From Octopus sinensis (lineage: Eukaryota), in assembly GCF_006345805.1 (NCBI RefSeq), contig NW_021835888.1, positions 1 to 37,803 on the forward strand: a DNA stretch of 37,803 nt, written 5' to 3'. Under the pieces are notes generated by a model that was not told the origin of the DNA, ran no database searches, and saw only the letters and a program-made list of their open reading frames with translations. The stretch's first letter is position 1; each line of letters starts with the position of its first letter. A program made the translations under genes and the position numbers. This document shows, piece after piece, positions 5,595 to 23,055 of this stretch.

Positions 5595-5958
5595 TATTGA
5601 TAAAAGGAATTCCAACCTTGTCTGATTTTCACGTTTTATTTACAATCTTATAATATGTTATAAGATAATATAATATAATAGAATAAAATAAAGTAGAATG
5701 TGAAATGTTCATGTAGTAGTGGTAACAGTCATGCTTCACAATTTTGACAGTCAAAAATTGTGAAGCATGACTGTCACCACTACTACATGAACCTGAAGAT
5801 TGCAGAACTTAATGCATGAAAGTACTAGTTCAATCAGAATGAACATTTAACATTCTACTTTATTTTATTCTATTATATTATATTATCTTATAACATATCA
5901 TTATAAGATTGTAAATAAAACGTGAAATCAGAAAAGGTTGGAATTCCTTTTATTAATA
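5595..5958. mobile_element. Fold-back palindromic element in a TA microsatellite; right arm carries a hammerhead
   Basis: About 150-bp arms with few mismatches, centred on the single A at 5749 (ttttgac-a-gtcaaaa). The right arm has 52 extra nt between atgaac repeats (5787-5792, 5839-5844). Confidence 0.9.
5788..5832 (+). ncRNA. Minimal type I hammerhead ribozyme
   Basis: ugaac CUGAAGA u ugca gaacuuaa ugca u GAAA guac U A guuca. Stem I is 5 bp, stem II is 4 bp closed by a U.U pair, and stem III is the palindrome AGUACU. Predicted cleavage after 5827. Confidence 0.75.
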
Positions 5959-5987
5959 TATTTTTCAATACACAATCACACCACCCA

Positions 5988-6407
5988 TCTATATATATAT
6001 ATATATATATATATATATATATATATATATATATATATATATATATATATATATATATATATCTATATATATATATTATTATATGTGTCATATATATGTA
6101 TATACATATATATATATATATGTATATATATATATATTATATATATATATATATAATATATATATATATGTATGTATGTATGTATGTTGTATAATATATA
6201 TATGTATGTATGTATGTATGTATATATATATATGTATGTATGTATGTATGTATATATATATATATATATATAGTATATGTATGTATGTATGTATGTATGT
6301 ATGTATGTATATATATAATATCTATATATATATATATGTATGTATGTATGTATGTATGTATACACACACACATATATATATATATATTCATATATACATA
6401 TATATAC
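5988..6407. repeat. (TA)n/(TATG)n compound microsatellite
   Basis: Direct inspection. Confidence 0.95.
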
Positions 6408-6473
6408 ACGACGGGCTTTTTCTGTCAACCAAATCTACTCACAAGGCTATAGTATGAGACACTTGCCCAAGGT
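6408..6473 (-). mobile_element. SINE family A, internally deleted fragment
   Basis: acgacgggct...ccaaatctactcacaaggct...gacacttgcccaaggt matches the reverse complement of 6919-7082. Confidence 0.7.
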
Positions 6474-6918
6474 TTCCCCCGCCCGACACACACACACACA
6501 CACACCACACACACACACACACACCACACACATACATTTGCGCCCCGCTGGTAAACTTTGACAGACTAAGAAAGATGTTTCATATAAAGTATAGAGAAAC
6601 CTTAAATATTCAGCAAAACTAAAAAATAAATAAATAAAAAAACTATAGATCTAAGGGAAGTAATTCAATTTCATAACTCAACAGTAGCTTCCCTTGGAAA
6701 ATTTTGTGTTTGTTCCTCCTTCCTCAAAAATTTTCAGGAGAGTTGAGTATTAAACGCAATTTCATATTGAAGTGAACCCCAAACCAGAACAACAAAGGAT
6801 AGAAAATCTCATCTCAAAGAATCTGGAATTATATTACAACCGACTTAATGCTTTTAGAATTATTTTGATACAGTTATTCCGGCCCGCAGATTTTGTGTTT
6901 CATTGTGGAGATTCTAAT

Positions 6919-7082
6919 AGACGCAGGTGTGACTTTGGGGTAGGGAGCTTGCTGCCCAACCCCAAGGTTATGGTACCATCCCACTGTTTAGCACCTCGGG
7001 CAAGTGTTTCCTACTACAGCTCCTCACGCACCAAAGCCTCGGGAACGGATTTGGTTGGGAAAACTGTAGGAGGCCGGTCGTA
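6919..7082 (+). mobile_element. SINE family A, tRNA-derived head and CORE-like segment
   Basis: Degenerate tRNA-like head, then gggcaagtgtttcctactacagc...ggatttggttgggaaaactg...gtcgta. Homologous copies lie at 16.4, 28.8, 30.1 and 34.7 kb. Confidence 0.75.
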
Positions 7083-7097
7083 CACCCACAACACACC

Positions 7098-7737
7098 TAT
7101 GTATGTATGTATGTATGTATGTATGTATGTATGTATGTATGTATGTATGTATGTATGTATGAATATATGTATGTATGTATGTATGTATGAATGAATGTAT
7201 GTATGTATGTATGTATGTATGTGTATGAATGTATGTATGAATGTACGTATGTACGTACGTATGTATGTATGCATGTATGTATGTGTGTATGTATGTATGT
7301 ATGTATGTATGTATGTATGTATGTATGTATGTATGTATGTATGTTTGAATGTATGTACGTACGTACGTACGTATGTATGTATGTATGTATGTATGTATGT
7401 ATGTATGTATGTATGTATGTACGCACGCATGTATGTATGTATGTATGTATGTATGTGTGTATGTATGTATGTATGAATGAATGTATGTACGCACGCACGC
7501 ATGTATGTATGTATGTACACACGCACGCACGTATGTATGTATGTATGTATGTATGTATGTATGTATGTATGTATGTAGGTATGTATGTGTGTATGTATGT
7601 ATGTATGTATTATGTATGTATGTATGTATGTACGCACGCATGCATCTATGTATGTATGTATGTATGTATGTATGTTGTATGTATGTATGTATGTATGTAT
7701 GTATGTATGTATATATGTATGTATGTATGTATATATG
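7098..7737. repeat. About 640-bp (TATG)n microsatellite with CG-containing variant units
   Basis: Direct inspection. Confidence 0.95.
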
Positions 7738-20066: not shown

Positions 20067-20636
20067 CACTTGCAATGAAAGACACTTTGATCGTGAACAA
20101 CCTCCTTTCTCAAAATGAATGTCTAATAATACATTATTTAATATGTCTTTCTGTATTTTCCAGACGATTTGACGGAGACCTGACCATTATATTATTGAAG
20201 GTTGACTCACCATTTTAGGGTTCCTCGGGGACCCCGATCAACTCCAATTTGAGTAGATGTGAATCTCATTCATAACATTGTTCAGCTTGGAAATAACAAA
20301 TCTCAACAATACGAACTAAGGCCATAACCAAAGAGCGATAAGAAGCAGAATTTTCCGTTATGGAAAGAGATTCCGTTTACTTACAATGTAGCTTTTATCT
20401 ATGAATTCTTATATAAACAGCACAGGAGCTGATAACATTGAGATAATGATTCAGCCATTGAAAATATCAGGTTATTACATTGTGGAATAATAATAATTAT
20501 GCAGTAATTGTATTAAAAATAGTGAAGATGGGGAAGATGGGGAAGATGGGGAAGATGGAGGGATGTGTTGTGTGTAAACCTCCTTATTGTTACATCGTGA
20601 CTTATTAAATATCACGTTACAAACAAATTGCTATAC

Positions 20637-21060
20637 CTAGATATAGATATATATACATATATATATATATATATTACATATATGTATACATATATATATA
20701 TATACATATATATATACATACATATTTACATATATATACATATATATATTTGCATATATATATATATATATATATATATACATATATATATATTTGCATA
20801 TATGTACATATAGACATATGCATAGCATACTACATACATACATACACACACACATACACACACACACATATATATATATATATATATACATATATATATA
20901 TATATATATCATATACATAAATACAGACATACATATATATATATATATACATATATACATACATACATACATACATACACACACACATACACACACACAC
21001 ACACACACACCACACACATATATATAATATATATATATATATATATATATATATATATAT
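20637..21060. repeat. (TA)n/(TACA)n/(CA)n compound microsatellite
   Basis: Direct inspection. Confidence 0.95.
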
Positions 21061-21547
21061 GTTTGTTGTATACGAATAAATTCACTTGATAGCTTGTAGA
21101 AATGAAATTGTTACATTAATGTTAGTTTGCCCAAGATGGAAGCGTTAAGGTAAAAATTGCAAACGTACCAGCCTAGCTAGACTTCTGGTGAAGGGTCAAA
21201 TGTGTTGTGTTGGAAGAGCCTAACACAGTGCTGGGAAAGCGAAAGGAAAAAGTACATTCGTGAAGAAAACTGGGTTTGGATTGACTAATTTCTCCTTTGC
21301 AGGATGGGAGTTGCAATATAATCCTCTGTTTTCTTCGTTATCAAGTAAAACAATATTAACCAAAATATATATATTTCTGTGGCACATCCACCATCTACAT
21401 ATTTTTACCACTCTTCAGGTTCTCGGCAAGATCATCACTATTTAGGAATGTTACCGAATGTTTTCTGCCTCTTTCTTAATCGGAAATCTCGCTTGTACCG
21501 TGCCGAACCTTTTCCCTTGGCTGGCATATACTTTTAGTACCCCCAGA

Positions 21548-21870
21548 AGGCATGTGTCCAAGTGGTTAGGATATTCGGCTCACGATTGTAAAGTCGTGAG
21601 TTTGATACCCAGTGATGTGTATTGTCCTTGAGCAAACACTTGATTTCACTCTGCTCCAGTCCAGTCAGCTTGAAAAAAAAATGAGTTGTAACTGCTTTTC
21701 AAAGGGCCAGCGTAGTCACATTCTGTGTCATGCTGAATCTCTCTCTGAGGACTGCGTAAAGGGTAGACGTACTTGTGGAGTGCTCAACTAGTTGCGCACT
21801 AATTTCACGAATAGGCTGTTCAATTGACGGGACCAACTGGAACCCTCGTCGTCGTAATCATAGGAGTACC
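21548..21870 (+). mobile_element. SINE family D (tRNA head, CORE-like tgtccttgagcaa...gctccagtcca segment, tail X)
   Basis: Head gtggttaggatattcggctcacgattgt; the tail is shared with the SINE at 24951-25330. Confidence 0.85.
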
Positions 21871-22740
21871 AGTAAACCCCAACTGGTTCAAGGCACTTTT
21901 CAATTTAACTTCGTGTCGTTTACTCCAATCTTACCGTCCTATACACCTTTAAACAATACGTTTTTTCTCTCTGTGTCCTCCTGACTATGTTGTTGTGTGC
22001 TTAAAATGACTGTTCTTGCATTTTTGGTCAGGAAACATTTGGTATTTTTCAAATCCTGCGATTAGAGATAAATTAATTCTTGCACTCGAACTGCGTTAAC
22101 GGATTATTAACATTTGATTTGCTATGCGCAGTGTTAGCGTTATTAATGGTGTTAATGTTAATGTAAATGCTAGCGGTGGTGGCGATGTAGGTGGTGGTGG
22201 TGGCTGTAGGAGTGGGGGCTGCGGTTTTGGCAGATAAGTTGTTGCTACAGTTAACTTTTTTTTTATTTATTTTCATCGTTCTCTTGATCAATGTTGTTGT
22301 TTTTGCCGTTGCAGCTATTCATTGCAGCGGGGTGAGTGGTTGTAGTGCCACAGTGTCGTTGTCGCCGCCCACATTGTCGTTGTAATTGCTGTTATTGTTG
22401 TTGATGTTTCTGTTGTCATTGGTGATGGCGCTGTCGCTTTGGCTTAAAATAGGAAAAGCAGAGTCGAAATTGCTGTTCCAAACGCTATTTACCCCCCTAC
22501 ATTACAGTATTCTGTTGAAAATTTCGGCGCCATGTTTTTATTCTATTTTTAATAGTTAAGTTTCAGAAAGAAATTTACCAAATTCTCTCACAAGAAAAGC
22601 AAACCAAATCTATCTGTTCACTTCCTTAGTTACCTGATATCTTTAGCAATAAAACAGCAACAACTCTATAGGACAGTCTTTTAAAACACAGTTAAAACAA
22701 CCAAGCTTACCAGTGATTTGAAGGGCCGTTATAAAAAAAA

Positions 22741-22846
22741 ACAGCATAAAAACAGCAGCAGCAGTAGCAACAACAACAACAATAACATAATAATAATAAT
22801 AATAATAATAATAATAATAATAATAATAATAATAATAATAATAATA
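22741..22846. repeat. (CAG)/(CAA)/(TAA)n microsatellite
   Basis: Direct inspection. Confidence 0.9.
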
Positions 22847-22852
22847 AAAGGC

Positions 22853-23055
22853 AACAATTGCAGCGTGGAAGGTGTTTGTAAGCCATTTAAGAAACACACA
22901 AAAATTCGTGCTGCACGGATTTTTGTCAGTGAACAGGTCGCGGTCTTAAAGCGACGAAAATATTTTGACAAATTAAACTTAAATGTTGAAGTGAATCGAA
23001 CGGCTTTTGTGTGTTTCTTAAATGGCTTACAAACACCTTCCACGCTGCAATTGTT
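22853..23055. mobile_element. Fold-back palindromic element; right arm carries a variant hammerhead
   Basis: Perfect 51-bp inverted repeat (22853-22903 / 23005-23055) with central cgtgc-t-gcacg at 22912. The right arm has 84 extra nt between ttttgt repeats (22921-22926, 23005-23010). Confidence 0.9.
22922..22972 (+). ncRNA. Minimal type I hammerhead ribozyme with G3-C8 swapped core
   Basis: uuuguca GUGAACA g gucgc ggucuuaaa gcgac GAAA auau U U ugacaaa. Stem I is 7 bp, stem II is 5 bp, and stem III is the palindrome AAUAUU. Confidence 0.75.

Follow-up and report, generated by a model that had tools for sequence, protein, structure and literature searches.

The described systems closest to the DNA considered here are the endonuclease-bearing (EN+) Penelope-like elements (PLEs). 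In the passages of Craig et al. 2021 (PMC8557442) and Arkhipova et al. 2013 (PMC3846280) on which we draw, these elements have an open reading frame (ORF) for a reverse transcriptase (RT) with a C-terminal GIY-YIG domain, a pseudo-long terminal repeat (pLTR) in partial tandem, a head-to-head inverted truncated copy with a tail at one end and a palindrome at the junction, a TATA/initiator-like pLTR motif, insertion into AT-rich and (TA)n targets, duplication of the target over close to 10 nt, and microhomology deletions. We analyzed positions 1 to 37,803 of contig NW_021835888.1 of Octopus sinensis (assembly GCF_006345805.1; 37,803 nucleotides, hereafter the window), an unplaced 38-kb contig of a microsatellite-rich 2.7-Gb assembly. 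Two hammerhead-bearing palindromes in the window, element 1 (about 5597-5990) and element 2 (about 22839-23123), represent two families, 1 and 2, that resemble EN+ PLEs in these respects, the partial tandem having been seen in family 1. Unlike the EN+ PLEs of those passages, the families here yield ORF-less pLTR-end palindromes, tens to hundreds of them, with a fixed centre, and the family-2 tail is about 58 nt long compared to 30-40 nt.

The minimal metazoan PLE hammerheads of Cervera and de la Pena 2014 (PMC4209133) share with ours the type I topology, the palindromic helix III and the extra base before stem II, and they also occur as opposite-strand pairs 100-700 bp apart. The relevant text of that paper names U3-A8, whereas family 2 has a natural G3-C8 and family 1 has T-T at 10.1/11.1 together with a common U4C. 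Non-LTR retrozymes, as presented in the part of bioRxiv 10.64898/2026.07.22.740005 used here, are likewise short, non-coding, hammerhead-bearing and PLE-derived; however, they are head-to-tail tandems with two same-strand ribozymes, while the octopus palindromes are head-to-head, have at most one ribozyme per strand and are by-products of coding parents. Short same-strand tandems were rare in our samples (L126, L272). Miniature inverted-repeat transposable elements (MITEs) are short, non-coding and hairpin-forming and have TA-rich targets. The palindromes differ from MITEs in their unequal ends (the tail), variable centres and arms ranging from tens of bases to 4 kb, and also in that their ends belong to RT-encoding elements with no link to a DNA-transposase partner.

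The consulted portions of PMC8557442, PMC3846280, PMC8969392, PMC2377424, PMC6765202, PMC4209133, PMC11167929 and bioRxiv 10.64898/2026.07.22.740005 describe the inverted truncated copy and palindromes at its junction, a tail on one side, deletions at microhomologies and hammerheads paired on opposite strands. The layout is therefore already known, although the original prediction, made from the window alone, had not recognized it as described; PLE insertions that are head-to-head and tailed on one side are in print. The palindromes are ordinary PLE by-products of a known kind and not a new class. Each is a single short insertion of a PLE pLTR end, probably formed from two cDNAs that were primed on opposite strands and joined at the RNA 5' end, and its ribozyme-less arm is a sporadic microhomology deletion.

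Two palindromes and their Penelope-like parents

On sequence grounds, elements 1 and 2 are the pLTR ends of two separate PLEs whose parents are predicted to encode an RT and a GIY-YIG nuclease, which bears out the PLE link drawn earlier. Element 1 corresponds to the pseudo-LTR's final 257 nt in L122, a full-length retroelement in which a pLTR with a tail, an ORF and a second pLTR without a tail follow one another, the direct repeats being about 820 nt long. The 728-aa frame of L122 contains an RT and, C-terminally, GIY-YIG, the latter above the Pfam cut-off (E 2.3e-5). In the family 2 parent (L294), an ORF of 1042 aa lies upstream of the element-2 end; its protein aligns to that of family 1 over the RT and GIY-YIG motifs (BLASTP E 2e-6 and 5e-6; about 25% identity), and its Atlas neighbours (0.96-0.98) bear RVT_1 and GIY-YIG. 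Two results speak against this identification: RVT_1 in L122 fell below the cut-off (E 2.7e-6; 27.7 bits vs 29.6), and the L294 protein had no Pfam match. A search of PDB with the L294 protein also gave no match. A TATA-like box is present at -30 in both parents, and a CX2-5CxxC motif precedes GIY-YIG in both proteins. This motif is described for Neptune and Nematis (PMC8557442, in the part consulted), and an affinity of both families to these groups is suggested by it. No full direct tandem was found in the 10 family-2 ORF loci fetched, which have a downstream pLTR and inverted pairs instead.

In the family-2 3' region (L294, L301), the ORF stop and the putative start site are separated by about 1 kb rich in (TACA)n, inside the element, which therefore spreads microsatellite-like DNA. 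A sister PLE family (L339-L348), 59% identical to family 2 in protein sequence, has ORFs of up to 1120 aa and long inverted pairs; the hammerhead descriptor described below matched none of its 10 loci examined.

Both elements are head-to-head palindromes around a single unpaired central base, 5749 in element 1 and 22912 in element 2, as had been claimed. The elements run on beyond the ends first given (5595-5958 and 22853-23055), each into a tail on one side that reaches about 5990 and 23110, respectively. Their parts, with pLTR positions counted from the putative transcript start, are as follows.

Element 1:
5597-5712, minus strand: outer left arm, antisense family 1 pLTR from +224 to +93, by alignment to parent L122
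5707-5748, minus strand: inner left arm, family 1 pLTR from +46 to the centre
5746-5752, no strand: centre GAC-A-GTC, the quasi-palindromic 5' end of the putative pLTR transcript (parent TATA-like box at -30)
5747-5958, plus strand: right arm, family 1 pLTR from +1 to about +224
5788-5832, plus strand: type I minimal hammerhead motif (sequence descriptor), predicted cut after 5827
5959-5990, plus strand: PLE tail, about 33 nt, on a single arm, followed by (TA)n

Element 2:
22839-22851, plus strand: target-site duplication, left copy, 13 nt
22853-22903, minus strand: outer left arm, antisense family 2 pLTR from +149 to +99, with the tail-less 3' boundary
22900-22911, minus strand: inner left stub, mirror of 22913-22924, with an ACAAAA microhomology join; 84 nt absent
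22909-22915, no strand: centre TGC-T-GCA, quasi-palindrome, +4 to +10 of the putative transcript
22913-23055, plus strand: right arm, family 2 pLTR from +8 to about +150
22922-22972, plus strand: type I minimal hammerhead variant (sequence descriptor), predicted cut after 22965
23056-23110, plus strand: PLE tail, about 58 nt, on a single arm
23111-23123, plus strand: target-site duplication, right copy, 13 nt

The outer left arm of element 1 stops at the tail-less 3' boundary (+224), its edge being uncertain by a few bases because the flank is (TA)n. The 46-nt stub of element 1 is joined over 6 nt to the arm ending at +93 by GTTCAT (equal to ATGAAC), with 52 nt absent; on the right arm the ATGAAC copies lie at 5787 and 5839, 52 nt apart, and it is the mirror of that stretch that the left arm lacks. 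In element 2 the stretch absent from the left arm lies between TTTTGT copies at 22921 and 23005, 84 nt apart, each within a longer, imperfectly repeated ACGG-A/C-TTTT(T)GT. The 52 and 84 nt missing from the left arms, and the ATGAAC and TTTTGT copies that delimit them, are thus just as predicted, and the microhomology at the junctions (ATGAAC, ACAAAA) is real. Read along the intact arm, the centre base is A in element 1, where that arm carries the tail, and T in element 2.

Both right-arm hammerheads were recovered with a descriptor for which stems I and II, the core and a helix III of palindromic sequence are all obligatory. It matched exactly two sites in the window, those in elements 1 and 2, and none in 100 local shuffles; each window copy thus has one sense motif. 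Element 1 has the core CTGAAGA (canonical C3-G8), T-T at 10.1/11.1 and helix III AGTACT, and element 2 has the core GTGAACA (a G3-C8 swap), an extra base before stem II and helix III AATATT. The Rfam search reported neither hammerhead, just microRNA matches driven by microsatellites and, on the element-1 hairpin, a match to mir-507 below the threshold, and the output of a generic repeat finder on the window was dominated by microsatellites. Folding z-scores of the two elements were -12.8 and -34. The expectation that the ribozyme is looped out and free to fold is met by prediction in element 2 (pair probabilities 0.47-0.92 for stem I and 0.99 for stem II) but only weakly in element 1 (about 0.2 for stem I). 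In fully symmetric copies the predicted ribozyme pair probabilities were 0 for both elements. Minimal PLE hammerheads need dimers and cleave slowly, according to the part of PMC4209133 consulted.

The natural G3-C8 core is present at 22929-22935 and in all common family-2 haplotypes; in the Poseidon PLE of Anolis (Frangieh et al. 2024, PMC11167929, as far as its consulted sections go) a C3G/G8C double change is partly active. The main difference among family-2 subfamilies is the stem II loop. In family 1, a CCGAAGA core (U4C; L122:700-745 and other copies) occurs in 36+6 of 120 arms, a large and young-looking subfamily. A further hammerhead-like site at 31369-31415 (plus strand; CTGATGA, a 4-bp stem and GAAA) has no stem I and fails the descriptor.

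Elsewhere in the window, 2261-2980 (minus strand) is a mariner transposase fragment (Transposase_1 E 5e-20; HTH_48). Frames 80-433 (minus), 24365-24760 (plus) and 32054-32431 (minus), which by eye resemble hAT-related, RTE-LINE and mariner remnants, had no Pfam match. Inverted copies of another dispersed repeat lie at 15248-15476 and 19231-19643, the second with a 186-nt tandem duplication.

The ribozyme-less arm among sister copies

Exact-pattern matches in the genome, all of them lower bounds, numbered at least 997 for family 1 and at least 2,098 or at least 6,528 (arm matches) for family 2. BLAST ranking favours window-like copies, and frequencies were therefore taken from position-ordered pattern matches: the first 100 of the 997 and of the 2,098 matches, on contigs C1-C2, gave 82 family-1 and 94 family-2 loci. 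Head-to-head inverted pairs made up 47/94 of the family-2 loci and 28/82 of the family-1 loci (hand count). Two pairs of loci (L422 and L423; L296 and L299) are identical on different small contigs and are probably duplicated haplotigs.

The ribozyme-less arm is a rare sporadic deletion and not the layout of either family. The junction pattern of element 1 occurred once in the genome, as did a match to the reversed control pattern, whereas its centre was found at 52 loci (81 matches, hand count). Among 45 palindromes examined with this centre, 29 kept both ribozymes and 16 had one arm cut at differing positions. The element-1 deletion is private to this copy.

The element-2 junction pattern was found at 12 loci genome-wide, the window included. 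These 12 copies have four stem II loop types (subfamilies), and their junction bases vary in the way that crossing over inside an imperfect repeat of 12 nt would lead one to expect, with three copies sharing an identical junction. The tail is on the deleted arm in 9/12 and on the intact arm in 3/12. BLAST adds the variants L034, L038 and L039 to this class, and L040 with another breakpoint. In the 47 sampled family-2 pairs, the second arm had a whole ribozyme in 26, ended before it in 11, ended inside it in 7 and had another internal deletion in 3; the deletion seen in the window was present in none. The element-2 deletion is a recurrent minor hot spot, affecting perhaps 1/20 of centre-joined palindromes, a rough estimate. 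Deletion breakpoints in sister copies vary and have no tie to ribozyme edges.

Taken together, the comparison asked for in the original prediction went against it, most copies being symmetric or cut elsewhere. It was partly right in that the element-2 deletion recurs; the element-1 junction is unique.

How the palindromes may form

The 3' ends of arms fall at two fixed sites per family, +224/+257 in family 1 and +149/+208 in family 2. One long and one short 3' end were paired in 38/39 classifiable family-2 pairs (P 1.5e-10; the other 8 of the 47 were unclassified, as an end lies elsewhere) and in 23/26 classifiable family-1 pairs (hand count, leaving out L209 and L222, which are spurious chains), the other 3 having two tails. 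A single target duplication, mostly of about 12 nt, brackets the whole pair, reaching at least 8 nt in 33/45 compared to a shuffled mean of 4.2. Sense-arm 5' ends lay within -3 to +13 in 31/82 family-1 and 73/94 family-2 loci, the latter figure being inflated because the search pattern begins at +8. Of the 24 family-2 arms that begin at +1 with no element sequence upstream of it, 16 have G at -1, where the parent has C (P 2e-5). The unpaired central base is native to the element 5' end (GAC-W-GTC in family 1, TGC-W-GCA in family 2), and along the tailed arm it reads A in 14 and T in 20 family-1 pairs and A in 9 and T in 10 family-2 pairs. Three pairs mix subfamilies: L045, L236 and, by eye, L234, which has a 12-nt target duplication. 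The tail rule, the duplication, the 5' ends, the centre orientation and the mixed pairs together favour two cDNAs over self-priming.

In vitro, the Poseidon PLE protein cuts and extends both target strands and uses uncut RNA as template, with two internal RT start sites that bound the tail (PMC11167929, in the sections consulted). The pairing of one long with one short 3' end matches these two start sites and the extension of both strands, and thereby supports the two-cDNA model; those sections give no account of inverted pairs, whereas here one arm ends at each start site. Neither a two-cDNA route nor a cap-derived G was found for PLEs in the literature searched, older subscription reviews and supplements lying outside it.

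We lean, with somewhat less assurance than for the two-cDNA origin itself, towards a dimeric enzyme that primes both cDNAs, one per tail boundary and sometimes on different RNAs, with run-off at a capped 5' end and annealing through the quasi-palindrome. The target would be cut in a staggered manner and one cDNA primed on each strand. Reverse transcription would start internally at the two tail boundaries and run off the RNA 5' end, so that the pile-up of 5' ends would mark the transcription start and the extra G would be a record of the cap. The two cDNA 3' ends could then anneal via the odd-length quasi-palindrome (GAC-W-GTC or TGC-W-GCA), leaving a T-T mismatch that might be fixed in either direction. 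When a cDNA stops early, its end may be joined by microhomology, at times after a short snap-back extension. The template RNA seems to be uncut. Ribozyme-cut RNA as template was considered and rejected, as no second arm ended at the cut site in 47 family-2 and 18 family-1 pairs; in another sample one arm (L335) ends at +60, which is explained by stem I microhomology.

The deletions may have arisen during joining or later. For element 1, snap-back of the tailed cDNA followed by annealing to a cDNA that stopped at +93 is plausible because short inverted stubs with microhomology joins are common; the copy also fits a later deletion or an assembly slip. For element 2, a palindrome that was otherwise full would have undergone slippage from one imperfect 12-nt repeat to the other. 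A symmetric copy (L312) and a deleted one (L142) have the same palindromic junction linker, compatible with two cDNA ends each with an extra C. Slippage, during fill-in or later replication, is likelier because 12/12 junction copies lie in palindromes and because of this linker match. RT skipping was rejected as the sole cause of the element-2 deletion: all 12 junction copies are head-to-head, while about 4/10 eligible arms are not (P about 0.0015, from a rough hand count of eligible arms). That the lost stretch includes the hammerhead would follow from how much of the short span between start site and tail this motif occupies.

Several observations do not sit easily with two separate cDNAs. 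Two tails were seen in 3 of 17 short family-1 pairs, and the G at -1 is clear in family 2 only. Arm loop length was concordant in 26/28 pairs compared to about 15 by chance (12.9 mixed pairs expected), and 5/43 doubletons among rare variants were common to both arms compared to 0.4 expected; this concordance would also fit one arm having been copied from the other, or later gene conversion. Short inverted stubs joined directly to target DNA were found, and therefore snap-back or inter-arm copying also occurs. Mixed arms could represent later template switches or conversions. Template switching after insertion could also flip the central base.

Among the alternatives, we consider it unlikely that these insertions, with the same PLE origin, gained their mirror arm when one strand folded back and primed itself, the window copies having jumped the folded ribozyme by microhomology. 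For rotifer Penelope elements the junction palindromes have been read, at least in the part of PMC3846280 consulted, as products of self-priming with an antisense strand as template, and the mostly concordant arms and common short stubs agree with such self-priming, as does the centre of element 1, where A along the intact arm is the snap-back prediction for that arm. Contrary to that published reading, the copy statistics here favour two cDNAs. Fold-back cannot add a tail that the template lacks, nor can it mix subfamilies as in the three pairs above. It predicts one centre orientation, yet both were found about equally, and element 2 itself has T along its intact arm; the variable breakpoints, which show no tie to the ribozyme edges, do not suit the jump. 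In 9/12 element-2 copies the ribozyme-less arm carries a tail lacking on the intact arm, and self-priming is therefore not the general source of the outer arm. Snap-back with annealing, close to what was first proposed, is plausible for element 1 but not in general.

An origin of the deletions in faulty assembly or consensus calling of long hairpins, which would concern element 1 foremost, is improbable. The window is an unplaced contig, junction 1 was found once, and none of the listed contigs of four public runs bridges it; the arms map ambiguously, and those contigs, short and from other samples, cannot show absence. In contrast, the junctions coincide neatly with microhomologies, junctions of the element-2 class are found at 12 loci, with bases that match the subfamily, and element 2 retains an intact target duplication.

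The last alternative, a class of MITE-like 'hairpin retrozymes' amplified in the asymmetric form, the loss of the ribozyme from one arm leaving that of the other arm free to fold, is very improbable and largely refuted. In its favour, 12 family-2 copies have closely similar deletions, the junction being identical in three of them, and folding of the ribozyme is predicted for the asymmetric element 2 but for no symmetric copy. Against it, junction 1 is unique, the 12 copies comprise four loop types with differing junction bases and a tail on either arm, they compare with 6,528 arm matches, 0/47 sampled pairs have the deletion, and both families have protein-coding PLE parents.

Implications for Penelope-like elements

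The consulted parts of PMC8557442 and PMC3846280 treat it as an unsolved question how PLEs come to insert in tandem and in inverted form. Here, two unrelated families agree in signatures that can be counted and that point towards a two-cDNA mechanism. If true, the two-cDNA model would replace antisense self-priming and would explain the tail, the inversion and the central base in one step. Its prediction is directly testable in the existing in vitro PLE system (PMC11167929, in the sections consulted). For annotation, such palindromes are easily taken for MITEs or microRNA hairpins.

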